DNA of 64,000 bases from Longimicrobiales bacterium (lineage in GTDB: Bacteria > Gemmatimonadota > Gemmatimonadetes > Longimicrobiales > Gaopeijiaceae), in NCBI GenBank assembly GCA_965219445.1, contig CBDCNQ010000004.1, positions 448,001 to 512,000 of the forward strand. Direction: 5' to 3'. Both the position numbers and the translations under genes were made by a program. The notes under the pieces are model-generated. The model ran no database searches. It saw only the letters and a program-made list of their open reading frames with translations, and was not told the DNA's origin. Shown in pieces: positions 47,517-64,000 of the stretch (position 1 is the stretch's first letter; every line of letters begins with the position of its first letter).

Positions 47517-47712
47517 AGAGTTCTTTTGGGCGCCCCGCCCCGGGGCAGAGCCCGCGCACCCCACGTTATTCTAAACCCTACGACGAGTTCTTTGGGTCCG
47601 TTTCGCGAGCAGGCTTTTTTCGTTGCGCCATACGTTTACCACAAATAGCGTTGAAGGAGAGCTCTCTTGAGCTCCTCAGCACATTTGTGATGACTCTATC
47701 AGGAAGCAAACG

Positions 47713-48351
47713 ATGAAGATTCTTCGTCTTGTGGTCATGATCATGGCCCTCACGGCACTCCCGCTTCAGGGGCAGCTGGAATTCTCCGGCGGGATGAACC
47801 TCTCCGAGTTGAACGGAGCACTGGGCGGCGCGGGTCTCCAAGACGCCGCAAACCGGGCCGGAATGGTCTTCGGCTTCGATGTCGTCCTTCCAGCCGGGGG
47901 TATAGGCCTCGGCCTCGGGGCCGATTGGTCGCAGAAAGGCGTCGAGGACATCATCACGGACCCGGGGACTCAACAGGAGGTCCTGCGACTCATCGACCTC
48001 GAATATATCCAAATACCCCTCCACGTTCGCGTGCCGGTGGTGTCCGCAGGACCCACGACGCTGAACCTCGTGCTCGGACCGACGTTCGGCTTCAGGACCG
48101 GCTGTAACGTCACTGAGGGCGCCGCCGCTATCGAGAAATGTGGCCAGATAGCCAATGGACCCAACTTCAAGAAAACGGACATCGGCGGCACGGCGGGAGT
48201 CGGCCTGAGCTTCGCCTTGGGCGGGATCGTCTACGCCGGGTTCGACGTGCGTTACACGACCGGGATGACTTCCATCAACAAGATCTCGACGGACGCGCTG
48301 AAGAACCGGACTCTCTCCCTCGAGACCCATCTGGGATTCGGGATTTTCTAG
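47713..48351 (+). CDS. Outer-membrane beta-barrel protein (PorT/OmpA-like 8-stranded)
   Basis: Signal peptide, GGMNLS, SQKG, L.YIQIPL, GPTFG, DVRY..G, C-terminal Phe. Confidence 0.8.
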   Translation: MKILRLVVMIMALTALPLQGQLEFSGGMNLSELNGALGGAGLQDAANRAGMVFGFDVVLPAGGIGLGLGADWSQKGVEDIITDPGTQQEVLRLIDLEYIQIPLHVRVPVVSAGPTTLNLVLGPTFGFRTGCNVTEGAAAIEKCGQIANGPNFKKTDIGGTAGVGLSFALGGIVYAGFDVRYTTGMTSINKISTDALKNRTLSLETHLGFGIF

Positions 48352-48356
48352 AGTCG

Positions 48357-50256
48357 ATCGGGATAGGGGAGGACCGGCGTTCCCGGTCCTTCCCCTCCCA
48401 CACCACCAGGCATGCGGGTCCGCACCTGGCGGTTCGGTGAGTTGAGGTCAGTACGGCGTGAGCCGGGGCACACCCAGCTCGTCGAAGTACGCCCCTGGCA
48501 AGGCCGTGTGCAGGGCGTGGTGCGCGGCCACGTGCCACCAGCTTCGCGCGAACCGAGCAGCTCGCCAGGCGAGGTTCTCGCTCACACCGCGAGCCCTCAA
48601 CTCCCGGTACGCTGTCCTTCCCCGTTTCCACTGGCGTAATTGCAACGTACGCAGCCGGCGGTGGATCCATTGGTCCAGGTCTCGGAAAACCCCCGGTGTA
48701 TCCGCTAAGCCGAAGTATGCCTTCCACCCCAGCACGTAGCGCCGTAGCTCTTCTGCCACCTGTTGCAGGCTCCGCCCGCCACTCCGGCTTGTAATCTGCC
48801 GGACTCGCTCCTTGAACTTCGTCAGGGCCTTCTTGCTGACCCGGCGCTTCACGACCTTCCCTGCCGCTACCCAGAAGCTGTAGCCCAGGAACTGTCGATC
48901 CCACACTCGCGCCACCGCGCTCTTTTCCTCGTTGACCTGAAGCCGAAGTTTCCCGTACAAGTGCCTCAGCGCCTGCATCACACGTTGTCCTGCCCGCCTC
49001 GACCGCACGTATACATTGCAGTCATCGGCGTACCGGACAAACGCGTGTCCGCGTAGCTCCAACTCCTTGTCCACTTCGTCCAGGAGCACGTTCGCCAGCA
49101 ACGGCGACAACGGTCCGCCCTGAGGCGTCCCCATGTGCCGCTCCATCACCACCCCGTTCGCCATGACTCCGGCCTGTAGGTAGCGACGGAGGATCCGCAG
49201 CATCGCCTTATCCTCGATCCGCTTTGCCAGCCGCCCCATCAGCACGTCGTGGTTCACCCGGTCGAAAAACTTCTCCAGGTCCACATCCACCACCCATCGT
49301 CTCCCTTCCTGGATGTATTGCTGCGCTTCGCGCACCGCATCGTGTGCTCGGCGCCCAGGCCGGAAGCCGTGGCTGTGCCGACTGAACGTCGGGTCGAACC
49401 TCGGTTGCAGCACCTGCAGGATGGCTTGTTGGATGAACCGGTCCAGCACGGTCGGAATCCCCAACTCCCGGACCCCTCCCCCACTCTTCGGTATCTCCTG
49501 CCTTCGTACCGGCTTCGGTTGGTAGGTCCCCGCCAGCAACCGCTGTCGGATCTCCCCCCAGTGCCTGCGCAAGTACTCTGGCAGCTCCTCCACGTTCATC
49601 CCGTCGATGCCCGGACTGCCCTTATTCTGCCGCACGCGTTTCAACGCTCCTACGAGGTTGGCACGCCCGACCACCTCCTGCATCAGGAGATGCTCGCTTC
49701 CTGAGCGCTCGTCTCCATGGGCCACCGTTCCGGCTTCGCCACTCCCCTCTACCTTCGGGGCTTCACCCCTATCCTCCAGTGGGAGCCCCAGTTGCCTGGA
49801 CTCCTGGCGCATGGCCTTGCCGAGGTCCACGGTCGTCACGCTCTCCTCTCCGTTCGGCCCTTCGTCCGACAAAGCTGGGTCCAAGCGCATCATGCACTTC
49901 GTCGGCCTACTATGGCCTCTGCTGACTTCTCGCTCCGCCGGCAGGCCCAACAGCGCAGTGCCGGCGTCACCCTTTCAGGCGTCAGGCGAGACCTCCCCGG
50001 GTAAGAACGATGACCTTCCCCGCACAATCGCCGGATCTACGCCGCTTCCCCTTGGTCGCAGGAGCTTCGCGGTCAGTGGTCCGCTCGCCCCGGTCCGCAG
50101 CGCCTCGTATCCGGTTCCTGTTCGTCGACTCACGGGTTCGTTTCACGCTTCGTTCAGCGTACGCCTCACGACGAACGCCTTGCGCTTCCCTTCGGTCCCT
50201 GCGACCAGGTTCCGGGAGGACTTTCACCTCCAAGTCATCGCCCATGCCGGGCCCAC
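48357..50256 (-). mobile_element. Group II intron, class IIC (about 1.9 kb, apparently complete)
   Basis: 5' end GTGGGCCCGGCATGGGCG at 50256; TTCTTACCCGGGGAGGTCT at the end of DI; DV GAACCGCC...CCCGCATGCCTGGTGGTGTGGGAGG with CGC triad; DVI ending CCTATCCCGAT at 48357; hairpin just upstream of the 5' splice site. Confidence 0.9.
48448..49812 (-). CDS. ltrA: Group II intron reverse transcriptase/maturase (no endonuclease domain)
   Basis: NKGSPGIDG, RELGIPTVLDR, SHGFRPGR, DLEKFFD, GTPQGGPLSPLLAN, RYADD, FLGY, X domain (GWKAYF). Start uncertain (49950, 49812 or 49684). Confidence 0.95.
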   Translation of the reverse strand: MRQESRQLGLPLEDRGEAPKVEGSGEAGTVAHGDERSGSEHLLMQEVVGRANLVGALKRVRQNKGSPGIDGMNVEELPEYLRRHWGEIRQRLLAGTYQPKPVRRQEIPKSGGGVRELGIPTVLDRFIQQAILQVLQPRFDPTFSRHSHGFRPGRRAHDAVREAQQYIQEGRRWVVDVDLEKFFDRVNHDVLMGRLAKRIEDKAMLRILRRYLQAGVMANGVVMERHMGTPQGGPLSPLLANVLLDEVDKELELRGHAFVRYADDCNVYVRSRRAGQRVMQALRHLYGKLRLQVNEEKSAVARVWDRQFLGYSFWVAAGKVVKRRVSKKALTKFKERVRQITSRSGGRSLQQVAEELRRYVLGWKAYFGLADTPGVFRDLDQWIHRRLRTLQLRQWKRGRTAYRELRARGVSENLAWRAARFARSWWHVAAHHALHTALPGAYFDELGVPRLTPY

Positions 50257-50389
50257 CACCACAGGCGGTCGGCCGGGGCGGGAGCCCCGGACGACCCTGT
50301 CGGCCCTACATTTCCTCCCACCAAATACCGCACGCCGGCTCGAAGTGGCTATATTGAGCAGCCCCCCTCCAGCTGTGGAGGAGCGGTCT

Positions 50390-50605
50390 ATGCGGATGTC
50401 CTTTGACGAACTGTTCCGACAAGACCCTGACGGCATCATCTCTCCGAGACTTCCCGTACACATCAATGGTGTCACCATGCGTCCGGGCGTTGACCTTGGC
50501 GGAGGTGTCAGTTTTGGTGAGGTCGATCTCACACCGTTCGTGGGTAACGACCTCGACGTCGAAATCCAAGACGACGTCCACGTGATAAGGGGAATCTACC
50601 ACTAG
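50390..50605 (+). CDS. Small hypothetical protein (71 aa)
   Basis: GGAGGAG RBS before ATG 50390; MRMSFDELFRQDPDGIISP...IRGIYH looks like a compact beta protein. Confidence 0.7.
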   Translation: MRMSFDELFRQDPDGIISPRLPVHINGVTMRPGVDLGGGVSFGEVDLTPFVGNDLDVEIQDDVHVIRGIYH

Positions 50606-50675
50606 TCCCGCCGCCGAGTTTTGCCTATGCGCTCGTAGGCGGCTACGGAGGAGACGAGATGCTAATGCGGCGAAG

Positions 50676-50969
50676 CTAGGGGTGATGATCGGGATCGGCG
50701 ATGTGACGTTTGGGTCCCACGTCCTCTCCGAGGTCATCCGGATTAGTGACGATCTGTTGGACCTGCTGAACCACTCTACGCGCCCTCAGAAGACGACCGG
50801 CGACACGGTTAACGAAGGCGATCAATCCCATGGCACCGACGACCAAACCGACGAAATTGTTGAGCGCGAATAACAACACGACAGCGACGATCAACCACCG
50901 CCATCGAGCCTCTACCCAATCCACTACGATTGCCTTCCAGTCCCGTGATTCCTCACCTGAGGTTGTCAT
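50676..50969 (-). CDS. Small hypothetical membrane protein
   Basis: 97 aa with a central double hydrophobic segment. Confidence 0.6.
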   Translation of the reverse strand: MTTSGEESRDWKAIVVDWVEARWRWLIVAVVLLFALNNFVGLVVGAMGLIAFVNRVAGRLLRARRVVQQVQQIVTNPDDLGEDVGPKRHIADPDHHP

Positions 50970-51186
50970 GATCTTGGGCTCACTCCCGTATTAGAGCCGA
51001 CGATCACCACGCCTTGCGCGAACCTGTCGCCATGCCGCCCTCGCCCAATTCACACTCGATGGCGTAGCGGCCTTCGAGGGCAGCGTGGAGGCGGGAGACG
51101 GCATCGGACATGGAGGACAAGATGCGTCTATAGTGTGCAAAGCTGCAAGCCGACCACTCCGAGGGGCACCTGACTGGCGCCTCGGC

Positions 51187-51202
51187 TCGAACCTGTGACC
51201 TC
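51187..51202 (-). mobile_element. Putative att-site remnant: 16-bp copy of the tRNA-Val 3' half
   Basis: TCGAACCTGTGACCTC at 51187-51202 is identical to 54037-54052 inside tRNA-Val, in the same orientation and downstream of the tRNA. Confidence 0.6.
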
Positions 51203-51344
51203 TTTCTTAATGGGCGGTGGTCGTCGTGGCGTGAACCACGCAGGCCAACACAGTTGGGGACCAGTGGATTGGAGTTTTTGGGAATTCCGCACGAACGTCT
51301 ACCAGCTATCCAATACCTGTTCCGCGCTGCTGCTTGGGGTCTCG

Positions 51345-51878
51345 ATGTTCGATATCTCCCACGGTCGCACGATCAGCGCGCGCGGGTGGAGATCAGTGAG
51401 CCCGCCGAGCGCCACGCGCCGGGACATCGTGAAGTCCGAGCTTAATGCGATGGCCACCAACCACGGCTTCGCCGTTGAGAAGGTGGAGGTCGCGGACGAC
51501 GAGTCTTTGCTGATATCCCTTCAAGTGAAGGGAGACACGATTACTGAGCAGACGACGGAAATCCTTTCGGGCTTCGGCGGGACGAGGCGGCGCTACCATC
51601 AGACGGTGCGTACGGAGTGGGGGCCGCTCCGCCAACAGGTGTACGGCTTCCTGCAAACGACGCTTGATGCCCACGACGGCTATGTTGTTGTCAGAGTGAC
51701 CGTTGTGGGAAAGGACGGCGAACAGAGCTTGGGAGAACTCGAGGCTCCCCGCGCCGAACGTGAGGCAATGTTCCACGGCGAAGAGGTCGAGTCGATCAGG
51801 GCAAGACTCCCCGTCGACACCCTCTCGGACGAGAGCATTCCTGTCATCCTCAAGGGGCCCATCGTACCTGTCGCGTAG
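51345..51878 (+). CDS. Hypothetical protein
   Basis: Protein-like composition over about 175 aa; start uncertain (51345 or 51396). Confidence 0.55.
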   Translation: MFDISHGRTISARGWRSVSPPSATRRDIVKSELNAMATNHGFAVEKVEVADDESLLISLQVKGDTITEQTTEILSGFGGTRRRYHQTVRTEWGPLRQQVYGFLQTTLDAHDGYVVVRVTVVGKDGEQSLGELEAPRAEREAMFHGEEVESIRARLPVDTLSDESIPVILKGPIVPVA

Positions 51879-52108
51879 CGAAACGATCATCTGCGCGATG
51901 TCGTTCTATGGTCCAAGACGAGTCAGCTTCGGGGCCACAACGCATACGAAAGCGCATTCGTTTGGCTCACTCCGACGGCAGGACAGAACGAGAAGACGGC
52001 CACCTCCGAACGATGGGGGTGGCCGTTGGATCGCGTCCGCGTCCGGGGGAATCCCAACCCTACCGAAGCCCGTCCGGGGTTCAGACAGACGTTCGATCCC
52101 CTCTCTGG

Positions 52109-53296
52109 CTACATTCCTGAGACGTACTTCGTAATTGCCCCGTCGACCACCGGTCGGGACTGCGGCCCCTCCGCCGCGTAAACGTTTCCATCCGCGTCCA
52201 CGGCCACACCCTGCCCGGCCAAGCCAAGGGGGCTGTGATCCGCCGGGTGGGGGGGGATAAACCCGGTAACTCGGTCCTCGAGAGCACTTCCGATACGGAT
52301 GCCGTTTATCCAGCCGGGATGGTTTATCACCCTTGTCTCCGCGTCGATCACGTACAGCCGATCATCGGGGGTAATGAAGATGCCGCTGGGCCGGCTGTAC
52401 TGATAGTAGGAGTCGACGTAGTTCCCTTCCTGGTCGAAGATCTGAATGCGATTGTTGCCCCGGTCCCCGACGAAGAGCCGACCCTGAGAGTCCATCGCGA
52501 TGGAGTGAGGAGTCCGAAACTCACCCGGAGCATTCCCGATCCTTCCCCACTCCATGATGAAGTCGCCGTTAGGCGCAAACTTCATGATTCGCCCGGTGGA
52601 GCCGGGAGGTGGATTCTCGTTCTGGCCACTGTGACCGTCCGCGACGAAGATGTCCCCGTTTGGGGCCGTGACCACATCGCAGGGCTGACTAAAGTGGTTT
52701 GGACCGCTTCCGGGCACGCCGGCCGTGCCTAGCCGCATAACGATCTCACCTTCCGGGCTGAACTTGATCACCTGGTGACCTTTCGTTCCTTCCTCGTTGC
52801 CCGAGGAGTCGGTCACCCACACGTTCCCCACGCTGTCCACGTGAATGCCGTGCGGGCTTATGAACGACCCGCCTCCAAAGCTCGTCAACGGCTCCCCTGT
52901 ATTCCGGTCAAGTTTGACGATCGGGTCGAGAAGGCTGTCCTCGCAACTGAGGCCATAACTTACGTTGCCACATCGGTCATAGGTCCATATGTGTCCGTCC
53001 GGCCCAATGTCGACGTCCGCACTAGACCCCCATTCGCGACCATCCGGCAGGCGTCCCCAGTTCGTGATGACCGCTGGATTGGGGTTCGGCAGGTTGTTTA
53101 GCACGGGGTCGGTGACGTCATCCGCCGGGGTGCCCGTAGTACCGATGGGCGGCAGGTCGAAGGCAGACGCTTCGTCACTCGTCTGTCCGTCTTCACTGGC
53201 GGGCAGTTGATCACTGCCCGGCCCACCGCATCCCACGAACAGCGTCAGGGCGATGCCCAGGAGACTTGTGATTTTCGAGCGACCGGACCGCGGCAT
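52109..53296 (-). CDS. NHL-repeat beta-propeller lipoprotein (peptidyl-alpha-hydroxyglycine lyase-like)
   Basis: Lipobox FVGC; repeats SPHGIHVDS.GNVWVTD, QPCDVV.APNGDIFVADG, TPHSIAMDSQGRLFVGDRGNNRIQIFD. Confidence 0.88.
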   Translation of the reverse strand: MPRSGRSKITSLLGIALTLFVGCGGPGSDQLPASEDGQTSDEASAFDLPPIGTTGTPADDVTDPVLNNLPNPNPAVITNWGRLPDGREWGSSADVDIGPDGHIWTYDRCGNVSYGLSCEDSLLDPIVKLDRNTGEPLTSFGGGSFISPHGIHVDSVGNVWVTDSSGNEEGTKGHQVIKFSPEGEIVMRLGTAGVPGSGPNHFSQPCDVVTAPNGDIFVADGHSGQNENPPPGSTGRIMKFAPNGDFIMEWGRIGNAPGEFRTPHSIAMDSQGRLFVGDRGNNRIQIFDQEGNYVDSYYQYSRPSGIFITPDDRLYVIDAETRVINHPGWINGIRIGSALEDRVTGFIPPHPADHSPLGLAGQGVAVDADGNVYAAEGPQSRPVVDGAITKYVSGM

Positions 53297-53413
53297 GACA
53301 GCCTCCCTTGACGTTCAGAGTTCGGGGGTGCACTCAGGGTCCTGCAGGCCAAACCCACGTGGCGGAACGCGCCAGGCCCTGAGCCGCCCCCAAGAGTGGT
53401 ACCACCTAGAGTG

Positions 53414-53596
53414 TTAGTCCAACCGCCTCATTTTGCCTGGGGTGAGGTCCAGTAGCAAGGGCAGGCCCGCGAAGTTCGGCAAGATGGCAGTCATGATGAA
53501 GACCAGACCGAACGGTATCATAACCGCTTGGTTGTAGTCCTCATTCGCCACGGCCATGACGATCAAGGCGATACCAATCAGTGCAAAGAAGATCAA
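53414..53596 (-). CDS. Small two-TM hypothetical protein, possibly a degraded gene
   Basis: 60 aa hydrophobic ORF; the nearby GGAGG-ATG at about 53628 is out of frame and hits a stop after 11 codons. Confidence 0.35.
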   Translation of the reverse strand: MIFFALIGIALIVMAVANEDYNQAVMIPFGLVFIMTAILPNFAGLPLLLDLTPGKMRRLD

Positions 53597-53987
53597 GCGT
53601 CAAAGCCCCCCAACTGGATGATGACCATGGCAACACCTCCCAGGGTTAATCGTAGAAATACATCGTATCTCTATTGTGAGACAGCGACGAGCGATGGGAT
53701 CGGACATGGAGCGGTCCCCGAAGCGAGAAGAGCGGTGCCCCATCTTATCGGACGACCAGCGTATACGCCAAGGCTACGGTGGGGAAATTCTACCCGCCCC
53801 ACTGACGGGACCCGACTTCTTGACTGCTCAAAAACGCTCTTCGAGAGAGGTGAACAGTGTTGAACGGTGAAATGGAATCGGAAAAATTTCAGGGGGGGGT
53901 ACGGGGGTCGCCGGAATCCGGTATGAGACCCAACCGCAACAACCGTTCTCACGTAGACTATATGTAGACTACGACCAATGACGAGAA

Positions 53988-54017
53988 GCAGCACAAAGCG
54001 GAAAAGCCTTGTGCTGC
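53988..54017 (-). terminator. Hairpin directly 3' of tRNA-Val (terminator-like)
   Basis: GCAGCACAAAG (53988-53998) and CCTTGTGCTGC (54007-54017) form an inverted repeat. Confidence 0.55.
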
Positions 54018-54021
54018 CTAG

Positions 54022-54096
54022 TGGGCGGTACAGGATTCGAACCTGTGACCTCCTGGGTGTAAACCAGGCGCTCTGAACCAACTGAGCTAACCGCCC
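54022..54096 (-). tRNA. tRNA-Val (anticodon TAC); CCA not encoded
   Basis: GGGCGGTTAGCTCAGTTGGTTCAGAGCGCCTGGTTTACACCCAGGAGGTCACAGGTTCGAATCCTGTACCGCCCA folds as a cloverleaf; anticodon arm CCTGG-TT TAC AC-CCAGG; T-loop GTTCGAATC. Confidence 0.97.
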
Positions 54097-54326
54097 GTGC
54101 ATACTCCTTCCTCTGCTTACAGCGCCTCTCTGAGCGTGCCACCTTGCAACACAACTCGGAGCATGGTCTCCTGGTCCGCCTGCTGATAAACCTGGCGAAG
54201 CGTGTTGGAGTTGGTCCACCCCCCAGCGGCAGCCCCGACGATCACAACGGCTTCCACAGAGACAAAGCCAGTCGGAGATCTGCCCTCATTTCGGTCAGCG
54301 TCAGGATATCTCGCCGACAGCTTCGG

Positions 54327-54740
54327 TCATCGGACCCTCACCCACCGATTGAGGGCCTGCAGGTAATTCATGACTTCCAAGCTCTCTCTATTGATACCCA
54401 AGACCGTTCTGGCACTCCGTAGCGCCGACCTCGCCACCTCGCCCGCTAGCTCGCCCCCTTCACCGCCCGAACTCTCCAGCCCGAGGCACGTGACCTCTTC
54501 CGGCGATGAGATCTCGGTCACCTCCACCCGGACGTCGCCTTCCCGGCCACTCCAGAGCTTGCTCACTCGCGCCTTCGTTACCGTCACGATTCGAATGTTC
54601 GAGTCGCTCCTGGTCAAGGTATCGAAAGTCAGATTCCGGTCGAGGGGCTCCTCGGGGAAGGGCGGCAGGGTGATGCTTACGTCGGCAAACTCGCGTCCGA
54701 GGCTCTCGAGTCCCCGGCGTGACGTCCTCAGGATCGGCCG
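54327..54740 (-). pseudogene. Probable 5'-truncated gene fragment
   Basis: An open frame (...LGREFADVSITLPPFPEEPLDRNLTFDTL...NYLQALNRWVRVR*) with no credible start or RBS upstream. Confidence 0.3.
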
Positions 54741-54949
54741 TGGCCTCCGCGGCCCTCTCCACTCCGGAGCCTTGTGGGCTTCCGAACCGCAGTCAAGCCG
54801 TTGTTATGTTTCCCGTTCGCACTACGTTGCTGGTGGCGGCGGCCTGAGGCGCCCGACGGTAGCGACGCCTAGATAGCCAGGAGCAGCCCGCTGCGCCCTG
54901 GGGTACCACTAGATCGGTTACGCAGGCCTCCTCCATGCTTCCGTCAGTC

Positions 54950-56014
54950 ATGCACGCCCAGACTTCATCAACGCGCTTACGTCGCCGATGGCTGCGCGCC
55001 GTTCTCATGCTCGCAGCGGGTGCGTTCTTGCTCCTGGGCGGGATGACCCTATGGTTGCTGCGCGACCCCGCCCCCTGGTTCGCCGAGCAGAGGTCGGCGC
55101 TGGTAGCGGTCGAGGAAGGGCCGGTGGATGTGTCGGCTGGTCATGTCTCGCAGCCCGTTCGACTGCGGGCCTTGAGCGGACTCTCGGTCGACCTCCTTGT
55201 CCGGGCCCCTGACAGCCCGCCAGAGGAGAACCTCGCGCCGGCCGCGGAGGAACCCTCGCCGGTAGGGGATGACCCGGAAGCAGCGGGCACCGGTGCCTCT
55301 TCGCCCCTTAGCGGCGGGAAAGACGGGTCTGGTGGCCGGCCGCTGCTCCTCATCCTCGGCGGGTATCGCACCGGAGAGCAAGCGGCGATGCTCGTCGAAG
55401 ACACCCGGGGCACGGTGGTCGCGGCGATGGCGTACCCGTACGACGGTCCGGTGAACATCGAGGGCCTTGCGGTCCTGAAGTACGTCCCGCGGATCCGGCG
55501 GGCCTTCCTCAATACGCCACTAGCGGTCCAACTCGCTCTCGACCACTTGCTCTCACGTTCGGACGTGGATCCCACGCGCGTCGAGCTCGTCGGCGTGAGC
55601 TTCGGGTCGTTCTTCGCGGCGGTTGCGGCTGCGCTGGACCAGCGAGTCACGAGGCTCTGGCTGATTCACGGCGCGGGGCAACCATATACACTTTTCGAGC
55701 ACAGCCTCAAGCGCTCCGTACCCCACAGGGCACCACGGGCGGCCGTTGCGGCCGTTGCCAACGTCCTGGCGGCCGGGCCGAGGCTCGCTCCGGAGCTGTG
55801 GGTGTCACAGGTCGCGCCCAGACCGGTCATCATGATCAACGCCTTGGACGACGAGCGTCTGCCGCGAGACGCGGTGGAGGCGCTCTACGCCAGCGCCCGC
55901 GAGCCGAAGGAGCAGATCTGGCTCACTGGACAGCACGTCCAACCGAACCGCCAAGAGATCGTTCGACAGTTGGTTGACGTGGTGCTGTCGCGCGCGGCGG
56001 AACCACCCGACTGA
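54950..56014 (+). CDS. Membrane-anchored alpha/beta hydrolase
   Basis: N-terminal TM; VDPTRVELVGVSFG (GxSxG nucleophile elbow); APRPVIMINA.DDER; terminal His region (W..GQH). Confidence 0.8.
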   Translation: MHAQTSSTRLRRRWLRAVLMLAAGAFLLLGGMTLWLLRDPAPWFAEQRSALVAVEEGPVDVSAGHVSQPVRLRALSGLSVDLLVRAPDSPPEENLAPAAEEPSPVGDDPEAAGTGASSPLSGGKDGSGGRPLLLILGGYRTGEQAAMLVEDTRGTVVAAMAYPYDGPVNIEGLAVLKYVPRIRRAFLNTPLAVQLALDHLLSRSDVDPTRVELVGVSFGSFFAAVAAALDQRVTRLWLIHGAGQPYTLFEHSLKRSVPHRAPRAAVAAVANVLAAGPRLAPELWVSQVAPRPVIMINALDDERLPRDAVEALYASAREPKEQIWLTGQHVQPNRQEIVRQLVDVVLSRAAEPPD

Positions 56015-56150
56015 ATGCCGCCCTCGAGGCCACCTCCGAAGCTGGGGGGGTGGCCGTCCTCTTTGTGGCCCCTCGCGCTCAGCCCACAACTCCCTCACGT
56101 TGAGGTGTCCTCAGTTCGTCACGAAAGAACCCCGGCAGGAGGGGAGAGAC

Positions 56151-56525
56151 TTGAAGCGCGGCATCCTGGTCCTGACGCTCATAGCGTTGGCAGGTTGTGG
56201 TGATACTGGGACAGGGGTTCTTCGGACTGCCAACCTGGTGAGGGAAGGCACGGGCGTGTGGACGAACTGTAGCTTCGGGATTTGCGATTTCGTGGGCGAT
56301 GCCCGAAACATAGGCGAAGGCTGCGCCGAAGAGGTTAGGGCCGTGATCAAGTTTTTCGACACCGCCGGCGTACAGCAAGGGCCTTCCGAGGACTGGAGGC
56401 TCCCTTCTTTCCGTGTGATCCGGCCTGGCGAGGCGTTCATCTATGAAGTCGTTTCCTCCGAAACGATCATGGACGCCACCGCGTCGAGCCAAATCGAGTT
56501 TTCGTGGACGGATACCGAGTGCTAG
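56151..56525 (+). CDS. Small lipoprotein (FxLYD-like Ig fold)
   Basis: GGAGG RBS then TTG; MKRGILVLTLIALAGC lipobox; G.ARNIG...V.AVIKFFD..G...IRPGE..F. Confidence 0.7.
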   Translation: MKRGILVLTLIALAGCGDTGTGVLRTANLVREGTGVWTNCSFGICDFVGDARNIGEGCAEEVRAVIKFFDTAGVQQGPSEDWRLPSFRVIRPGEAFIYEVVSSETIMDATASSQIEFSWTDTEC

Positions 56526-56656
56526 TCGGTTGACTGCCCATCCTCTTGGGGGCCGATAATCAACCCGGTTACCCTCGATCGACAATCGATGTTGTTCCTG
56601 TTCAGCGGCCGACTAAACTTGCAAGTAATTACGACGTGCTTACGGGAGGCATGCAA

Positions 56657-56791
56657 ATGAAAACCAAGATCGTTCGAATCGGAAACTCAAGAGGCGTCCG
56701 AATCCCGAAGCCTCTGCTCGAGGAGGCGGGGCTGGAGGACCAGGTGCGATTGAGAGTCGTCGAAGGGTGGTGCTTTCTCCGGACGAACTGA
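56657..56791 (+). pseudogene. MazE/AbrB-family antitoxin, C-terminally truncated
   Basis: MKTKIVRIGNSRGVRIPKPLLEEAGL (AbrB-type N-terminus); similarity ends at about 56766. Confidence 0.8.
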
Positions 56792-57009
56792 ATCGACACC
56801 TCAACACCGTCGTGGTGGCTCCAATGACGACCGGCGGGCACCCGTATCCGTTTCGAATCGCTTGCCGTTTCCAGAAGCGAGACGGATTCGTGGTGCTGGA
56901 TCAATTGAGGGCCGTCGATACACATCGACTGATGCGAAAACTTGGACGCCTCAGCCCCCAGGCGACCGCCAGTTCACTCAGTGTATTGGAGGAGATGTTC
57001 ACCGAATGA
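56767..57009 (+). pseudogene. MazF/PemK-family toxin, N-terminally truncated
   Basis: VVLSPDELNRHLNTVVVAPMTT...VLDQLRAVD..RL..KLG; the N-terminal region with the DP..G.E..K.RP motif is absent. Confidence 0.8.
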
Positions 57010-57031
57010 TTCTAAAGGCTTCGCGCAGGTC

Positions 57032-57295
57032 CTATTCGTCGTCACCGCCCGGGTCGCGCAAGAACTCATCCTGGGCCTCGAGCCACGTCGCGAACTCGCT
57101 GTCCATCCACGGGCGCGTCAATGGCCAGTCTGCACCGAGGACCTTGGCCTGGGAAACCATATTCGCGATCGCGAGCTCCGCAGCATCTTTGACCCTCATG
57201 TTGAGGTAGCCGGAGTATCGCTCCAGCTCGGTGTACAGGTCGGTCGGAATCCTTAGTGTGACCTGTCTTCTGTCACCATTACCCGGTTGTCCCAT
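57032..57295 (-). CDS. Small ribbon-helix-helix-like DNA-binding protein
   Basis: AGGAGG RBS; QVTLRIPTDLYTELERYS..LNM.V..AAELAI fits an RHH/Arc pattern. Confidence 0.55.
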   Translation of the reverse strand: MGQPGNGDRRQVTLRIPTDLYTELERYSGYLNMRVKDAAELAIANMVSQAKVLGADWPLTRPWMDSEFATWLEAQDEFLRDPGGDDE

Positions 57296-57320
57296 ACGGT
57301 CCTCCTAAGCGAAGAGAGCC

Positions 57321-57527
57321 TTACAGGATGATCGCCAGTGGCACCAGGAATACGTAACCCAGAACGAGTAGGATCGGAGCCCACGTGATGGAGCCTATAG
57401 AGAGAAGCCAGTAGCCGAGCGCAATGGTCACGAGGGCTCCGGCCGCGAACGCGAGGTTGATCCTCGAGAACTGTAGCGACGCCTTACCCGCCCCAACCGC
57501 ATCGCCGCGTTCTTTTTTCTTGCTCAT
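57321..57527 (-). CDS. DUF3098-like small membrane protein
   Basis: F...N......G...IALGY.LL..GSIT.APILLVLGY..LVPLAI pattern. Confidence 0.7.
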   Translation of the reverse strand: MSKKKERGDAVGAGKASLQFSRINLAFAAGALVTIALGYWLLSIGSITWAPILLVLGYVFLVPLAIIL

Positions 57528-57581: not shown

Positions 57582-58949
57582 TCACAGGCCGAGCCGCTCC
57601 ACGTACCGGGTGAGCCGGGACCGAGAGATCCCGAGAAGCGAGGCGGCTTCCGTCTTGTTTCCGTCCGTTTGCTCCAGGACACGCCGGATTTGGCCCTCGA
57701 TCGCTGCGTCCAGCGTCAGATCGCCCTCAGGCACGCGACCCGAGCCCTTCGGCGACACACTCACGTCGGCATGGATCCCGAGCGTGAGATGGTCCGGACC
57801 CACCAACGGCCCCCTCGCCACGATGGCGGCACGGGTCAACGCGTTTTCGAGTTCGCGCACGTTACCGGGCCAATCGTACTCCTCAATACGGGCCATCGCA
57901 TCGTCCGAGATCGCCCCACCGTGGCTCCCGTCTCACGGCGGATGCGCCCGAGAAGATGCTGCGCGAGAAGAGGGATGTCCGCCTTCCTATCACGCAGGCT
58001 CGGGACGTAGATCTCCACGACCCGCAGACGGAAGTAGAGATCCTCACGGAACCCGCCCTCGGACACCAACTCTTCCATGGGCTGATGCGTGGCAGCCACG
58101 ACACGCGCCTCGGTCGTCTTGGGCTGTTCACCGCCAACCGGATTGCCGTTCCTGAAGCACCCGAAGGAGCTTGGACTGAAAGTCCGGGGACGTGTCCCCG
58201 ATCTCGTCGAGGAAGATCGTGCCCCGCCCCGCGAGTTCGAAATACCCCTTTTTCCCTCCTACTGCGCCGGTGAACGCCCCACGTACATGTCCAAAGAGCT
58301 CCGATTCCAGCAGCGTATCGGTGAGCGCGGTACAGTTGACCGCGATAAACGGCTCATCCGAGTGAATCGAGTGGTCGTGCACGGCCCGGGCGATCATCTC
58401 CTTGCCCGTGCCCGTCTCTCCTCTCACCAGGACGGTAGCCCGATTCCGGGAAAGCACTCCGATCATCTTGTAGATCTCGATCATCCGGGGATCCCGGCCA
58501 ACCACTTTTCTGGCCCCCGCGTCGGACTCGGCGCCGTCTGGCTCTTCGCCCTCTGCCTCCCGCTGCTCCACGGCGGCTCGATTGACCTCCTGATCGCTCA
58601 GACAACGATCCACGACCGCCTCTAGTTCTTTGAGCCCCACGGGCTTCACGAGGTAGTCGAAGGCGCCGGACTTCATGGCCTCCACGGCGGACGTCATCGT
58701 GTCGTGTCCCGTCATGACGATCACGTCGACGTACTCCATGGACTCCCGGATTCGGCTCAAGAGCTCGAGCCCCGTCATCTCAGCCATGCGTACATCGGTG
58801 ACGACCAGAGCCGGATCGAAGGCGCTGACCTTGGCGAGGGCGACCTCCGCGCTGTCCGCTTCGTCAATCTCGTGACCCGAATATTCGAGCTTCTCTCGAA
58901 AAAGGGATCGGAGGTCGGCGTCGTCGTCGACCAGAAGAATGCGAGACAC
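57582..58949 (-). pseudogene. Sigma54-dependent response regulator (NtrC/AtoC-like: REC-AAA+-Fis HTH), interrupted by two frameshifts
   Basis: ILLVDDD and VTDVRM receiver; GETGTGKE, ESELFGH..GAFTGA, FLDEIGD; FREDLYFRL in a second frame; WPGNVRELEN and GNKTEAA.LLGISR in a third segment. Breaks near 58142 and 57914-57917. Confidence 0.88.
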
Positions 58950-58982
58950 GTTGGATCCTTTCTAGGAGCGCGTTGCCAACTC

Positions 58983-60020
58983 TTACTCCACCCCGTCCGG
59001 GTCGGGTCCAGCATCACGATCCTGTAAACCTTCATGGGTCAGCCAGAAGCTGGGCCGATCCGGGATATCCACCGCTCTGAGTCGGGCCATCCGCTCCCGC
59101 CCTACCCTCCTCCGAACCCCCACCATGGCAACGAGCAGCAGGCTCAGAAACATCCAAAAGACCGCCGAATGGGAGAGGACGAAGAGCCACCCGTAGCGCT
59201 CTTCAACGTAGCGCCGCCAGTCCTCCTCGAATTGGCCGGTCGTGGTTCCGAACGTGGCTCGAAAGGCCCGCTCGAAGTTTCCATCGTCCTTCCACCGTCG
59301 GAGCAGCACCTCTAGCGCCCGCGGCCCACCTTCCACCACCAAGTATTCCACGGTGGTGGCCGACAGAAGATACGCGATGCGAGCCCTGGACTCATCCCTC
59401 GGCCACGAAAAAGTGAGGGAGTCGAGCGGGCTGCCCCCTCGGGCCAACGCGATCCGAAGTTTCCAGCCCTCGCTCCAGTCCCAGCCGCCGCTCGCCCACT
59501 GAGCGTATCCCTCGGAGAACCAACGGGGCAAGCGGAGTCCCTCCAAGTATTGATGTAGGCCTATGTGCGCCCATTCATGCCGCAGGGTACGGGCGTCACT
59601 CCAGCCCGCGCCCCGCTCCGATGCGAACGCCGGAACGACAATCGTCGACTGGACTGGCAACGCCACACCGGCGCCCCAGTCCGGGGCCGCTCCCCCGGTG
59701 AGGCGAACGAACTGGTCTTCGTCCGGGGCTAGCACGAGAAGGACGCCGCTCGGTACCCCCGGGGGCAGACCTGGTAGTGGGGCCGCGCCATCTAAAGTGC
59801 GGAGCACTCGGACAGCCTTGACCGAATCGGCGGAAACGAAAGCGACGGTGGCCCGCGCCCCGGCCAGGTACCGGCCGTCCGGAAGCCTCAGCCCGGCGTC
59901 GTCCTGCCACCGCACGTCCGCGGCGGCCGCGTCCTGCACGTCAGGGCTCTGCCTACTCCCGTCCAGTCCGACCGTATCCTGCCCGATCGCGAGAATCAGG
60001 GCCAGGACGGTCGGAATCAC
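58983..60020 (-). CDS. Peptidase MA-like (HEXXH) exported protein with a C-terminal membrane anchor
   Basis: PDWGAGVA, LRHEWAH, PRWFSEGYA; signal peptide; TM near the C-terminus. GTGA overlap with the upstream gene. Confidence 0.8.
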   Translation of the reverse strand: MIPTVLALILAIGQDTVGLDGSRQSPDVQDAAAADVRWQDDAGLRLPDGRYLAGARATVAFVSADSVKAVRVLRTLDGAAPLPGLPPGVPSGVLLVLAPDEDQFVRLTGGAAPDWGAGVALPVQSTIVVPAFASERGAGWSDARTLRHEWAHIGLHQYLEGLRLPRWFSEGYAQWASGGWDWSEGWKLRIALARGGSPLDSLTFSWPRDESRARIAYLLSATTVEYLVVEGGPRALEVLLRRWKDDGNFERAFRATFGTTTGQFEEDWRRYVEERYGWLFVLSHSAVFWMFLSLLLVAMVGVRRRVGRERMARLRAVDIPDRPSFWLTHEGLQDRDAGPDPDGVE

Positions 60021-61630
60021 GTCCCCGCCGCGGCTCCGAGTTGGTCGATCTTCGTCCGGAGAGAGGAGTTATCGGGGTTCAATTCCAGGGCTCGACGCCA
60101 CAGCACGGCAGCTTCCTCGGTGTTGGAGTTCTCGAGTTCGATGGCGCCGAGCTTGATCAAGACATCCTCCCCTAGGCGGGGTTCCCACCTCAGGGCCGAC
60201 TCATAGTGTTGCTTGGCCTGAGCCTTGTCTCCGTGGCCCAGGGCTTGGTCCCCGAGGGCCTTGAAGGCCTGGGGAGGAGGAGAATCGGCCTGGATGGCCC
60301 TCTCGTAATAAGCCTTCGCGATCTCGCCGTCCCCCCGATGCTCCAGAACGGCTCCGGTATTCACGAGGATCGCCCCCTCATCCGGATATTGCTTGAGTCC
60401 CTCTTCACCGATCTTCAAGGCGCCACCCATGTCCCCCGCGAGTCCCGCAGCAATAACGCAAAAAGCGTAGAACATTGGCGGCGGCTTCTCCGATCCGAGC
60501 TGATCGCGGTAGGCCTTGAGTGAGCCCATCGCGGCGGCGGCGTCTCCCGATTTCATTTGGACGATGCCTCGCGCAAGGGCTAGACCGGCGTCGCTCCCAT
60601 CGAGCTTCTCCGCCGCATCCAGGGTTGAGAGCGCCTCGGCGTACCTGCCCAGCCGTTCGTACGTGAAGGCACGATTCCGGAGCAGGCCGTACGAAGGCTT
60701 CGCGTCCTCGCCGATCCCGTCGAAGTGAAGGAGAGCCTCCTGCGCCTTGCCCTGTCTCAGACTGATGAGCGCCAGGTGGGCCCGTGCGGCCGTGTGCGTC
60801 GGGTCAGCCTCGAGGACCTTTCGGAACTCACGGGTCGCTTCTTCCATCGACCCGGACTGATATGCGACCAGTCCCGGCCCGAAGTGTTCCTCCACGGATC
60901 CCTTGGCCTCGTCCTCGCGTACGCGCTTACCGACCTGGACCGCAAACCCGGCTTGGATCAAGCCGTACAACGCTTTTCCAGTGTCGAACTCGGCGAGTCC
61001 GGACTCCACGACTAAATCTGTGACCGAACGCTCTCCGTCTATCATAGGGATGATCCGCCTCTGGTCGTCCGTGAGGTCGAGGCCTTCATCCTCGAGGGGA
61101 TTCCGTTCCAACGAGAAGATGAGATCCATGGACGTGATCTTCTTTTCGACCACACTCCACTCGTCCACCCGGCGCGCTCCCTCCATAAGGAGGGCATCGA
61201 TGCTGATCGACACGCGAAATACGCCCTCTTCGGGCATAACGTCCGGCTCGAACTCGAACGTCCCTTCACTCCATTGAAAGATCATGTAGACGGCCTCATG
61301 GATCTGCACGGAGATGTACTCCTCCAGCGTCTCCTGAGTCAGGCTACCCAGCTCGACGAGCACCTCACCCAATCTGGTTCCGGTGACTTTGTGCTGCGCC
61401 ATCGCCACCTCGAGTTGAGCCTTGTCGATGACTTCGTGCGTGACTAGAAGATCTCCGAGCCGGTCCGGCCGGTTCTTGACGGAGGCGAAGATTACGTTTC
61501 CGCCCTCGAAGTAGACGTAGCCCTCGTTCTGCTTGTGCGTGAGACTCAGGCAGCCGGTCTTCCCGCCCATCCCGAGGAGTTGGGAGATGTCGGCGAGACT
61601 GACGTCGGTGAGTGCGCCTTTGATTGCCAT
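60017..61630 (-). CDS. DUF4388 (PatA-N-like) domain protein with TPR repeats
   Basis: MAIKGALTDVSLADISQLL..GGKTGCL, RLGDLL/RLGEVL repeats, W.EGTFEF, LLMEGARRVDEW, IDG.RSV; multiple TPRs follow. Confidence 0.85.
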   Translation of the reverse strand: MAIKGALTDVSLADISQLLGMGGKTGCLSLTHKQNEGYVYFEGGNVIFASVKNRPDRLGDLLVTHEVIDKAQLEVAMAQHKVTGTRLGEVLVELGSLTQETLEEYISVQIHEAVYMIFQWSEGTFEFEPDVMPEEGVFRVSISIDALLMEGARRVDEWSVVEKKITSMDLIFSLERNPLEDEGLDLTDDQRRIIPMIDGERSVTDLVVESGLAEFDTGKALYGLIQAGFAVQVGKRVREDEAKGSVEEHFGPGLVAYQSGSMEEATREFRKVLEADPTHTAARAHLALISLRQGKAQEALLHFDGIGEDAKPSYGLLRNRAFTYERLGRYAEALSTLDAAEKLDGSDAGLALARGIVQMKSGDAAAAMGSLKAYRDQLGSEKPPPMFYAFCVIAAGLAGDMGGALKIGEEGLKQYPDEGAILVNTGAVLEHRGDGEIAKAYYERAIQADSPPPQAFKALGDQALGHGDKAQAKQHYESALRWEPRLGEDVLIKLGAIELENSNTEEAAVLWRRALELNPDNSSLRTKIDQLGAAAGT

Positions 61631-61642
61631 ACCGTGCTATGC

Positions 61643-63637
61643 CTACTCCGTCAATTCGACAATGCGTTCATCAACTGCCGTCCAGTCCCACACCACGTTT
61701 TCCTTTGACGGGTTCCAAACCGAGGCCGTCGCGACCGGGTCCCCCACCTCGGCTCGAGCCGCTTCCGGTGGATCCACTGGTTCTGGGGTTTTCTCCTTCT
61801 CTGCCGGTGTTTCGGCGGCGGCGGGTGCGGTTACCGATTTGTCCGCGGCGGGCGTCAGGACAGGACCATCACCGACCTCGACCTCTTCCTCCGGAGGAAG
61901 AGCGCTTTCGGCCACCTTGGGCCGCATGAATCCAGCCCAGAGATCGTCGTCTTGGATATACTCGGGTGGCGCCTTTTCCAGATTCAACACTCCCGCACCT
62001 TGGGGCAGACCCCGGCCGGGCGCCTCCACCACGAGGCCCATCTCGAAGCGAGTCCGCAGCCTGTCGTCAATGTCTTCAATCCCGGAGGGCGCCCGGTCTG
62101 CCGCGATCATTATCTTCGTGCCGGTGCGCTTCGATGCCTCGAAAAGGTGGAAGAACTCGTCCTTAGCGCGCTCGGTCCCAGAAATCAGTTCGGCGTGGTA
62201 AAGGATCAAGAGGTCCACATCCCACCAGCGTTCCCGCCAGGCCCCAGCCACACCCTCCGACAAAGCCCGAATGTAATCCTCCGCGAATTCCGCAGCCGAA
62301 ATGACGGCGATGTTCGCAAGCTTATGCCCTTCTCGAAAGGATCGTGCTGTCGCCGCCAGCAGCGCCAACGGACCTGTACGATTCCCACTCCATACGTACA
62401 GGGGATTGTACTCCGGACGTTCCTCGGTGATGAGCTTACCGGCTGCCCTGATTACGACTGGCTCGAAGTTGGACTCGAGATCGGCCAGGAGAGGACCCTC
62501 TCCCAAGCGCGAGAAAGGCCGCACTCGCTCCAAAGCCGAAGCGAGCAGCGAATTCGCCTCATCCAAGCGCTCGGGATCCTTGAGCACACCGACAGCGGCC
62601 TCCGGCCAGGGATTACCGGCGGTGGCCAGGGACTTTTCCACCTGACGGAGGCGGGCGATGTCTCTGCGGAATTGGTCCGCCACTTCCTGGGGGTCCTCGG
62701 GAGCCGTGTCGGTTTCGAGGATTCGGCGCAAGCGTGTACCCGAGAATCCTTCCTTCTCAAACATCTCCGCCGTCTCCCGGAGCAGCCTTCTCCAGGGCTC
62801 CTCCTCCCTCTCCACCTTGTGCGTCACCGAGTGGGAAAGCTCCTCCATGAACGAGCCGAACTCATCGAGGAGCTGCTGGCCAGCGATCGATCCTTCGGCC
62901 GGCACCTCTTCCGGTTCCTCAAGGCCCGCCAACTCTTCGATCTCGTCCTCCGCGACCTGGCGGCCTTCCAGTTCCTGGATGGCGAGAATCTTGTTGAGCG
63001 CGCCCCCCAGTTGGCGGACGCTGCCGAAGGGGTGCTTCGCGAGCGCCTCGGCCACGCCCGGCTCTAACGTCTGGTCCCGCTCCTCGGCCTTCTTACGGAG
63101 GATGGCCACCTTGGTCTCATACTCCGGCACGCCGATGTCGACGATCAACCCACCCGAGAACCGAGTGAGCAAGCGCTTGTCCAGCCCGTCGATCTCGGCG
63201 GGCGGGCGGTCACTGGCGAGGACGACCTGACCCCCGGACTTGCTCATTCCATCCAGAAGCCTGAGCAGCATCTCCTGCGCTTCGTTCTGCCCGGTAAAGA
63301 ACTGGACGTCGTCAAGGAGGAGGATATGGAGTTCTTCGTACCGCTGTCGGAGCTCATCCTCAGACCCGGCCTGGACGGCCTGCGTGAGTTCGTTGAGGAA
63401 GCTCTCGACCGTCACGTAAACGGCCCCAAAACCGGGATGTACACGGGCCGAATAGTGCGCGATACCATTGAGGATGTGAGACTTCCCCAGGCCCGATGAA
63501 GAATAGATGAAGAGAGGGTTATAGGAAGTGCCGGGCGCGTCGGCCACGCGCCGTGCCGCCGCCGCCGCGAGCCGGTTCTCGGGCCCCACGATGAACGAAT
63601 CGAACGTAAATCTCGGATCCAGGTCCGTGGCTACCAC
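61643..63637 (-). CDS. DnaA/Hda-family protein with two tandem DnaA-type AAA+ modules and no DNA-binding domain IV
   Basis: Module 1: FTFDSFIVG..N, YNPLFIYSSSGLGKSHIL, LLLDDVQF, SDRPP, RLLTRFSGGL, SVRQL.GAL. Module 2: YNPLYVW, DEFFHLF, ADRAP, RLRTRFEMGL with degenerate Walker A and B. Confidence 0.85.
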   Translation of the reverse strand: MVATDLDPRFTFDSFIVGPENRLAAAAARRVADAPGTSYNPLFIYSSSGLGKSHILNGIAHYSARVHPGFGAVYVTVESFLNELTQAVQAGSEDELRQRYEELHILLLDDVQFFTGQNEAQEMLLRLLDGMSKSGGQVVLASDRPPAEIDGLDKRLLTRFSGGLIVDIGVPEYETKVAILRKKAEERDQTLEPGVAEALAKHPFGSVRQLGGALNKILAIQELEGRQVAEDEIEELAGLEEPEEVPAEGSIAGQQLLDEFGSFMEELSHSVTHKVEREEEPWRRLLRETAEMFEKEGFSGTRLRRILETDTAPEDPQEVADQFRRDIARLRQVEKSLATAGNPWPEAAVGVLKDPERLDEANSLLASALERVRPFSRLGEGPLLADLESNFEPVVIRAAGKLITEERPEYNPLYVWSGNRTGPLALLAATARSFREGHKLANIAVISAAEFAEDYIRALSEGVAGAWRERWWDVDLLILYHAELISGTERAKDEFFHLFEASKRTGTKIMIAADRAPSGIEDIDDRLRTRFEMGLVVEAPGRGLPQGAGVLNLEKAPPEYIQDDDLWAGFMRPKVAESALPPEEEVEVGDGPVLTPAADKSVTAPAAAETPAEKEKTPEPVDPPEAARAEVGDPVATASVWNPSKENVVWDWTAVDERIVELTE

Positions 63638-63656: not shown

Positions 63657-64000
63657 TCACTTTACTCCTTCGTTTCGTGCCCACTCGGCGCACGCTTGTA
63701 GGTCCTCCGGGAGAGGCCGCTCGAATCGCATCGCCTCGCCACTCACCGGATGGGCGAAGGAGAGCCTCCACGAGTGGAGGAACTGCCGCTCCACTTTTTG
63801 GCGCAGCGTTTTCGCCCAATTCTGGGCTTTGCCGCCGATCCCGCGCTCCCAGCCCGCGCCATACACGGCGTCCCCGACCACCGGATGTCCGATATGCGCC
63901 AGGTGGACCCGAATCTGATGGGTCCGCCCCGTGCCCAGCGCTACACGTAACAATTCGGCGCCGAGCCAACGCTCCACGACGCGAAGGCGTGTCACGGCGG
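63657..64000 (-). CDS. RluA-family pseudouridine synthase (RluD-like), 5'-truncated by the window edge
   Basis: LGTGRTHQIRVHLAHIGHPVVGD.VYG, RQFLH...L.F.HP. Confidence 0.9.
   Translation of the reverse strand, partial: AVTRLRVVERWLGAELLRVALGTGRTHQIRVHLAHIGHPVVGDAVYGAGWERGIGGKAQNWAKTLRQKVERQFLHSWRLSFAHPVSGEAMRFERPLPEDLQACAEWARNEGVK

Follow-up and report, generated by a model that had tools for sequence, protein, structure and literature searches.

The known roles of AAA+ domains of the DnaA clade lie in starting replication and in controlling that start, and we describe here a protein in which two such domains are joined and appear to serve in signalling. The window, by which we mean the whole 64,000-nucleotide stretch that was analysed (contig CBDCNQ010000004.1, positions 448,001-512,000, from the genome of a Longimicrobiales bacterium, hereafter G000), carries at 57582..63637 a row of genes that includes one for a tandem DnaA-type ATPase and one for a protein composed of a PATAN/DUF4388 domain, an MshEN-type insert and a TPR array. 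These two genes are the working unit of the locus, left behind when a larger cluster of Mgl and Che genes was deleted, and we give about an even chance to the reading that the ATPase is tethered by its tail to the PATAN-MshEN-TPR protein, and that the pair would sense cyclic di-GMP (c-di-GMP) and pass a signal to the type IV pilus motor. The DnaA-derived component is apparently undescribed; PATAN/Mgl/Che signalling itself is already known. What is new here is the predicted tether between tail and TPR array, the patterns in which MshEN and GGDEF domains are lost together with the ATPase or the pair, a single inactivation of the second AAA module in the lineage without the cluster, and the view of the neighbouring peptidase and activator genes as bystanders. 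The pair and its parts are as follows:

61643..63637, minus strand: tandem DnaA-type AAA+ protein, 664 amino acids (Pfam Bac_DnaA, two stretches)
62933..63622, minus strand: AAA-1 (residues 6-235), with Walker A K52, Walker B D109/D110, sensor I D143, arginine finger R159 and sensor II R208
62525..62869, minus strand: all-helical linker domain (residues 257-371), in which 10-residue blocks of the predicted local distance difference test score (pLDDT) are mostly 86-98 from residue 281 on
62015..62515, minus strand: AAA-2 (residues about 375-541), with no Walker A/B, lid or sensor II; finger R530 and R526 kept
61652..61723, minus strand: conserved C-terminal tail (residues 639-662; E-x-x-V-x-x-W...E-R-hydrophobic-x-E), marked by its conservation, predicted TPR-groove ligand
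60017..61630, minus strand: PATAN/DUF4388 - MshEN insert - TPR protein, 537 amino acids (Pfam DUF4388 + TPR)
61304..61462, minus strand: putative MshEN-type c-di-GMP-binding insert (residues 57-109) with two RLG motifs (NF053729, 56.6 bits, cut-off 38)
60026..60895, minus strand: TPR superhelix (residues about 246-535), with conserved groove residues N319, L393, N424, Q454, K457 and D489

The unit is defined by gene neighbourhoods across Gemmatimonadota, the phylum to which the named relatives of the window's proteins belong, the closest being Longimicrobiales. Genomes of relatives are referred to as Gnnn and individual loci or contigs as Lnnn (L034 and L097 are probably one and the same contig). 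Two sets of loci were compared: 52 close loci in which the pair lies downstream of rluA, as in the window (window-type), and 24 loci from other families, hand-chosen from the best matches, in which it lies behind mglA (cluster-type). The DUF4388 gene follows the ATPase gene in 50 of the 50 window-type loci whose contig is long enough, and in 24 of 24 cluster-type loci the ATPase gene has mglA directly upstream and the DUF4388 gene directly downstream. The full cluster, which sits between rluA and the mraZ/dcw region, reads cheW-cheY-cheA-cheC-TPR-DUF4388 paralogue-TPR/roadblock-roadblock-mglB-mglA-ATPase-DUF4388/MshEN/TPR-cheR-cheD-cheB-cheW-cheW-TPR-peptidase. Both the constant company of a DUF4388-TPR gene and the proximity of MglAB and chemotaxis genes, about which the original prediction had asked, are thus found, the latter in the clusters of the relatives. 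Since the adjacency of the ATPase and PATAN genes is conserved and the peptidase and activator genes are separable from them (see below), the unit comprises the ATPase and the PATAN protein.

The window's own genome yielded no che genes, no mglB, no cluster mglA and no DUF4388 paralogue, and its lone mglA match is an unlinked, frameshifted paralogue. Of 21 window-type genomes, for most of which no completeness is stated, 5 yielded a CheA dimer domain; an MglB-like gene turned up in a single one of 22 (L038). This lone roadblock/MglB gene (L038:9546-9980), located between rluA and the ATPase gene, represents an intermediate stage of cluster loss. In the family loci without the pair (8 of 8), rluA is followed by the peptidase gene, with neither a DUF4388 gene nor an activator. 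Remnants have been found as well: only 50 residues of the ATPase are left at L105:7928-8077, and at L050:10001-10456 a deletion has fused ATPase residues 1-116 with the last part of the TPR gene.

A search across 151 genomes of the phylum provided outgroups, among which distant classes have a single-AAA form of the ATPase together with a homologous TPR-only partner (hidden Markov model E-values 1e-50 to 1e-34). The order dapF - single-module DnaA-like ATPase - TPR-only partner is seen in L100 (G006:C35), L101, L102 and L080-L083, and on the same contig of G006 a receiver domain, a GGDEF domain, cheR and two cheW genes lie downstream of the TPR-only partner. A single-module form with linker and tail has been also identified inside a full cluster (L072:7727-8902, in G047), hence the second module is dispensable in some lineages. 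The search aimed at single-module relatives beyond the phylum yielded seven more full-length relatives of unassigned taxonomy, followed by tandem forms and ordinary DnaA.

The original prediction regarded the first protein of the pair as a DnaA-like ATPase without a DNA-binding domain, which agrees with the Bac_DnaA match and the lack of any match to domain IV, but must be corrected in that there are two DnaA domain-III modules. The two halves are 26% identical (E-value 2e-20), and the chain consists of AAA-1, a helical linker, a lid-less AAA-2, a low-complexity tether and a conserved C-terminal tail; no Pfam match to DnaA domain I or IV was found in it, and its alignment to canonical DnaA spans only residues 119-360 of the latter. 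The AlphaFold model of the whole protein has a mean pLDDT of 84 and a predicted template modelling score (pTM) of 0.51. A separate, canonical dnaA-dnaN pair is present in the genome (C5:1519985-1521364), and the gene for the 664-residue protein is not associated with dnaN.

The alignment has 77 rows, and motifs were counted in the 66 that are full-length with two modules (46 window-type and 20 cluster-type); the other 11 are truncated, split or single-module and were left out. K52 and D109 of AAA-1 are invariant (66 of 66), and R159 is seen in 62 rows; the module is 41.5% identical to the genome's own DnaA and superimposes on domain III of Bacillus subtilis DnaA (8bv3) with a root-mean-square deviation of 1.6 Å over 233 columns. 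However, the positions that bind single-stranded DNA (ssDNA) in the B. subtilis protein, I190, K222 and T225, correspond to T85, Q117 and A120, so the residues themselves are lost; the K222 equivalent is Q in 45 of the 46 window-type rows, versus K or R in 21 of 21 DnaA controls. According to the available parts of two reports on the B. subtilis protein, K222Q and T225A abolish unwinding (PMC6669920; bioRxiv 2022.03.18.484894), and AAA-1 of the window carries the equivalents of these substitutions.

The second module has taken a different course in the two groups: a P-loop of the form GK[ST] is present in 0 of 46 window-type rows versus 19 of 20 cluster-type rows, and the window-type rows also lack the lid. 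R526 and R530 are nevertheless kept in all 66, and the window-type AAA-2 retains equivalents of R202, H231, R264 and L269, a set that we take to lie on the arginine-finger face, having lost those of F218, G317 and R321. Retention of this set suggests that AAA-2 donates its finger to AAA-1 and ends the chain. In a tree of 76 domain rows (25 proteins with two modules each, 5 single-module forms and 21 DnaA), the dead AAA-2 modules group together as a single clade, whose long branch measures 1.05 and has a support of 100/100. The module was thus inactivated once, in the lineage from which the Mgl and Che genes were lost; the same tree gives neither the origin nor the order of the module duplication, since its long branches meet. 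The ratio of non-synonymous to synonymous substitution rates (dN/dS) is 0.03-0.31 over both modules, the linker, the tail and the domains of the partner, and 0.29-0.62 in the tether; against four close relatives it is 0.12-0.19 for AAA-2 and 0.16-0.26 for the linker. By this measure the pair is under purifying selection in the window's lineage, the ATP-dead module included.

The last ~25 residues of the ATPase are conserved in all forms, including the single-module forms from two distant classes, and have a low pLDDT, being unstructured in the monomer model. The original prediction had supposed that the two proteins act together and had proposed a structure prediction of the pair; a prediction made for the tail and the partner yields an interaction of the tail with the TPR array. 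Complexes of partner residues 1-535 with tail residues 630-664 were predicted in three runs with three controls and scored by ipSAE, with values of 0.89, 0.88 and 0.89 against 0.02 for the best control; the runs share at least 91% of their contacts and the pLDDT of the partner is at least 73. The same mark was reached in a benchmark by 116 of 157 solved complexes and by 2 of 215 mismatched pairs. In the predicted complexes the tail occupies the partner's TPR groove, where it contacts N319, N424, Q454 and K457, each of which is 93-97% conserved (69 rows). In combination, the motifs, the linkage and the predicted complex bear out the earlier idea of a DnaA fold reused without origin binding and paired with a DUF4388-TPR protein.

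The description of the partner as a DUF4388/PatA-N and TPR scaffold was also correct (PF14332, 121.2 bits, cut-off 25, plus TPR), except that the c-di-GMP motif of the MshEN type had been missed. The insert is matched by Vibrio cholerae MshEN (5htl) with an E-value of 6e-7 when the whole partner sequence is used as the query. As defined in the available part of the paper on this domain, MshEN consists of two tandem 24-residue RLG motifs separated by a 5-residue spacer (PMC5013675), and the insert fits this pattern. The RLG of motif 1 and Q109 are each present in 46 of 46 window-type rows. On these grounds, the partner likely senses c-di-GMP.

The distribution of GGDEF domains was examined in 57 genomes, among which kin are not independent. 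GGDEF matches number at least 5 in all 17 pair-bearing genomes (12 in G000, 11 in G114), while among 15 genomes of the window's family without the pair they number 0 in 14 and 1 in the other. Within this family the pair survives only where diguanylate cyclases are kept. The 15 genomes (e.g. G059, G062 and G139) are complete or near-complete, 2-4.6 Mb in size, with essentially no GGDEF and few PilT-family genes. Furthermore, six loci have lost the ATPase; in five of them a precise deletion has removed the MshEN insert, and in all six the partner is shortened at its C-terminus. The reduced clusters L089-L093 (G034, G045, G050, G070 and G072) lack the ATPase, and their PATAN protein has no MshEN insert at all and is short of the last TPRs; in two of these genomes, G070 and G072, Che genes and flagella persist but the cluster mglA and mglB are lost.

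The mechanism that we propose starts from the two genes, which are adjacent in every readable locus and in other families lie between mglA and cheR. Residues 639-662 of the ATPase, on a flexible tether of ~90 residues, are predicted to bind the asparagine groove of the TPR array. Binding of c-di-GMP to the MshEN insert may alter the action of the PATAN domain, as the motif suggests, and AAA-1 would bind and hydrolyse ATP while the arginine finger of AAA-2 would complete and cap its site. Being in the window's lineage a finger donor unable to bind ATP, AAA-2 would cap the AAA-1 site instead of building a DNA-unwinding filament, and the protein might in this way work as an ATP/ADP switch or as a timer. 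If the cyanobacterial PATAN proteins are a guide, the output would be PilB and PilC at the pilus base. In the available sections of the respective papers, the PATAN domain of Synechocystis binds PilB1 and PilC (bioRxiv 2021.06.11.447907), other bacteria have PATAN genes close to mglA/mglB (PMC4316618), and in Myxococcus xanthus MglA, a TPR effector and polar localisation of PilB control pili (PMC11580455). G000 encodes pilB-pilT-pilC and a second pilT; FlhA was not found in it and is present in only 10 of 30 cluster genomes (20 lack it). The window's lineage has deleted the surrounding Mgl/Che genes and kept the ATPase-PATAN core. A bolder version can be entertained, more tentatively: that in Gemmatimonadota the duplicated DnaA module, lending its arginine finger to its own partner module, is a self-contained nucleotide switch leashed to a c-di-GMP-responsive PATAN-TPR scaffold and gating the pilus motor, in the window's lineage without the MglA/MglB GTPase cycle or Che proteins, i.e. 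an ATPase-based polarity switch that has outlived a GTPase-based one. If the proposal is true, conserved, class-wide reuse of the DnaA domain in a motility or second-messenger pathway would widen the roles of the fold. The tail-TPR contact and the MshEN motif are small and directly testable parts (a 35-residue peptide and a 240-residue domain), and a natural deletion series is available: cluster intact; cluster lost and pair kept; ATPase lost and MshEN deleted; everything lost.

Several observations weigh against this proposal. TPR-peptide complexes are common in the PDB (OGT, PEX5), so the fold model may favour the docking geometry from likeness. In the ATPase-less loci (n=6) the predicted interface has decayed no further than other parts of the TPR array, with 9-11 of 20 interface positions kept versus 30-44 of 77 other conserved TPR positions, and N319 and N424 kept in 6 of 6. 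The pTM given above leaves the relative orientation of AAA-1 and AAA-2 unfixed. Cluster-type AAA-2 often retains the ssDNA-binding residues (I/V in 17 of 20, K/R in 14 of 20), for which reason members of the ATPase family may contact nucleic acid. In the MshEN insert, many window-type rows have another residue in place of the Gly of the first half-motif (H in 22 of 46), and L055-L057 have a degenerate second half. The five MshEN deletions come from two genera and may be one event; similarly, the pair-less, GGDEF-poor family genomes are kin with fewer PilT-family genes too, so that the co-loss may amount to few events, and GGDEF genes are plentiful in several pair-less genomes of other families (11 in G083, 10 in G084). 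Finally, a PilT-family gene occurs in 75 of 79 genomes and does not discriminate pair-bearing from pair-less ones; with pilT nearly universal and the target chosen by analogy, we can only infer the pilus as the target.

Each part of the pair resembles a known system. Domain III of the DnaA initiator (PF00308, TIGR00362; PDB 8bv3, 8btg, 2z4r) shares with AAA-1 its fold, ATP-site motifs and arginine finger, and the 664-residue protein just passes the TIGR00362 whole-protein cut-off (346.1 versus 343.9) because both modules add up. It departs from DnaA in having two modules and no domain I or IV, in the replacement of the ssDNA residues of AAA-1, and in its helical linker and C-terminal tail. Hda (TIGR03420) is likewise a DnaA-derived AAA+ protein without a DNA-binding domain, and AAA-2 resembles an arginine-finger donor; the ATPase differs from it in its score (105.8 versus a cut-off of 194.8), in that no clamp motif was found, in its tandem architecture and in its signalling neighbourhood. 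The same PATAN domain with a helical insert is described, in the available sections of two papers, for the cyanobacterial PatA-type proteins PixE and PixG and for SgnC of M. xanthus (PMC4316618; bioRxiv 2021.06.11.447907), from which the window's partner differs by a TPR array in place of the receiver domain, an MshEN-scoring insert and a DnaA-type ATPase as its mate. MshE, PilB and PilF (PDB 5htl, 6f8l) have the same tandem RLG motif and link c-di-GMP binding to ATPase function, whereas in the window the motif is on a separate scaffold, the ATPase is of the DnaA clade and not a secretion ATPase, and the two are joined by the predicted tail-TPR tether. In M. xanthus, MglA/MglB act with the TPR effector SgmX and the Frz system, and the window's relatives likewise have a single cluster that encodes a Che system along with MglA, roadblock proteins and TPR proteins; no DnaA-type ATPase is mentioned in the available sections on the M. 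xanthus module (PMC11580455; PMC4316618), and the window genome has lost the cluster mglA, mglB and che genes. No description of this tandem DnaA-type ATPase was found in the literature searched, supplementary tables not included; 'DnaA' has 0 occurrences in the main text of PMC4316618, whose supplementary neighbourhood table may show the cluster.

The pair is flanked in the window by the following genes:

63657..64000, minus strand: 3' end of rluA (pseudouridine synthase; PF00849, E-value 3.9e-5; entire open reading frame of 320 amino acids in the genome)
58983..60020, minus strand: peptidase MA-like protein, 345 amino acids (Pfam Peptidase_MA_2, PF13485)
57582..58949, minus strand: NtrC-type sigma-54 activator gene (Pfam Response_reg + Sigma54_activat), frameshifted twice

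The original prediction had placed four co-oriented minus-strand genes downstream of rluA, with a 12-bp gap, a GTGA overlap and a 33-bp gap, all of which we confirm. The gap between rluA and the ATPase gene is 19 bp, and rluA is a fixed upstream neighbour outside the module. The third protein was rightly described as HEXXH peptidase-like (PF13485, 45.1 bits, cut-off 32.4), with a C-terminal hydrophobic segment by hydropathy; HEWAH at residue 148 and the downstream Glu in EGYA at 170 suggest a gluzincin-like member of Peptidase MA. Among 16 family genomes a peptidase orthologue (E-value <1e-60) is found in 13 and a DUF4388 protein in 1, and of the 15 family genomes that lack the pair 12 still have the peptidase orthologue; the peptidase gene is likely an old chromosomal neighbour and not an obligatory part. 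As to the activator, the expected domains are present, but no continuous frame of receiver, AAA and helix-turn-helix domains exists in the window: the gene is split over three frames by two indels, with breaks at about 58141 and 57916. Contigs of sequencing run X1, which may be the assembly's own source, match the broken form, whereas the missing 5 and 1 bases are present in X2, X7 and X8, runs that come from three other studies. In most related loci the activator is a single uninterrupted match, and it is split in L020, L052 and L053. The genome's only mglA match (G000:C1:5013-5589; L116:714-1290; in the recR neighbourhood) shows a similar picture, with a 1-base frameshift in the assembly and X1 and an intact frame in X2, X7 and X8; the two together suggest strain-specific decay of motility regulators. 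In G027 and G047 the orthologue of the activator is found away from the pair, two genes beyond pilC in the former and next to a HAMP kinase in the latter. Identity with PilR, considered from the position in G027, was rejected for want of an adjacent PilS-like kinase. Downstream of the activator gene the loci have nothing in common (the largest family is seen in 6 of 32 loci), and the activator is likely a lineage-specific neighbour by chromosomal history.

Among the alternatives to a pilus-directed pair, one retains the same proteins and the same c-di-GMP input and places the output in production of exopolysaccharide or adhesin, or in the Che-like pathway itself, comparable to Dif-type systems. 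The cluster does encode CheA, CheC, CheD, CheR, CheB and several CheW, most cluster genomes lack flagella and pilT does not track the pair, and MshEN domains are also fused to glycosyltransferases in the available part of the source (PMC5013675). However, the pair is under selection where Che genes are missing (as seen from the CheA count above, with its proviso on completeness), the PATAN partners characterised in the sources at hand are PilB and PilC, and mglA is the fixed neighbour in cluster-type loci, so we consider such an output unlikely. Distinctly unlikely, in our judgement, is that the ATPase regulates true DnaA in the manner of Hda, with AAA-2 lending its finger to DnaA-ATP or capping DnaA filaments and the start of replication tied to c-di-GMP or polarity. 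The similarity of AAA-1 to the genome's DnaA, the retention of the R202, H231, R264 and L269 equivalents in 45-46 of 46 window-type rows and the location between divIVA/ftsH and the dcw cluster would all suit it, yet a clamp motif of the QLxLF type occurs in 0 of 66 rows, the Hda score falls short of its cut-off, many closed genomes yielded no ATPase gene, the genes tightly linked to it in cluster-type loci all belong to signalling, and the nearer partner for AAA-2 is AAA-1 of its own chain.

The model of the original prediction, in which the four genes form one pathway leading from envelope or polarity cues to sigma-54 transcription, is very improbable. Where contigs reach, the window-type order includes the peptidase in 48 of 48 loci, the activator in 46 of 46 and rluA in 49 of 49; the spacing is tight, no terminator-like site was found on the minus strand (the promoter and terminator scan gave nothing above chance), the activator has disappeared from the eight family loci together with the pair, and its orthologue in G027 lies near pilC. 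Nevertheless, rluA, ileS, divIVA and yggS are equally fixed, so the four-gene order is vertical synteny, extending over the whole block from ftsH to rluA. A sigma-54 activator is found beside none of the 24 cluster-type loci, in G047 it stands beside its own HAMP kinase, and in the window's strain it is broken with the pair intact; the peptidase, in turn, is retained without the pair. The idea of a four-gene sigma-54 module should therefore be dropped. Even less credence is due to the view that the pair is a non-functional relic of a decaying genome. Its Mgl and Che partners are gone, the strain's remaining mglA and activator are frameshifted, and related genera have lost the pair or, as in L050 and L105, parts of it; both reading frames are intact, however, the low dN/dS extends over all folded domains including the ATP-dead one, and the dead AAA-2 is one old clade.

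Upstream, the block ftsH-cdaA-like-exbB/tonB-yggS-divIVA-ileS-rluA (G000:C4 515901-526347; names by inspection of the translations) is kept in all window-type loci. On the other side, the peptidase gene of the relatives is closely followed by a gene for a 600-residue protein and mraZ, and the window has ~16 kb of variable genes between (about 39500-57500), including a tRNA-Val at 54021-54096 on the minus strand and, near 56650-57010, a stretch that by eye resembles the remnant of an AbrB/PemK-type toxin-antitoxin system. A pair 72-76% identical to that of the window is present in L005, a contig labelled Planctomycetota, which is probably a misbinned Longimicrobiales contig.

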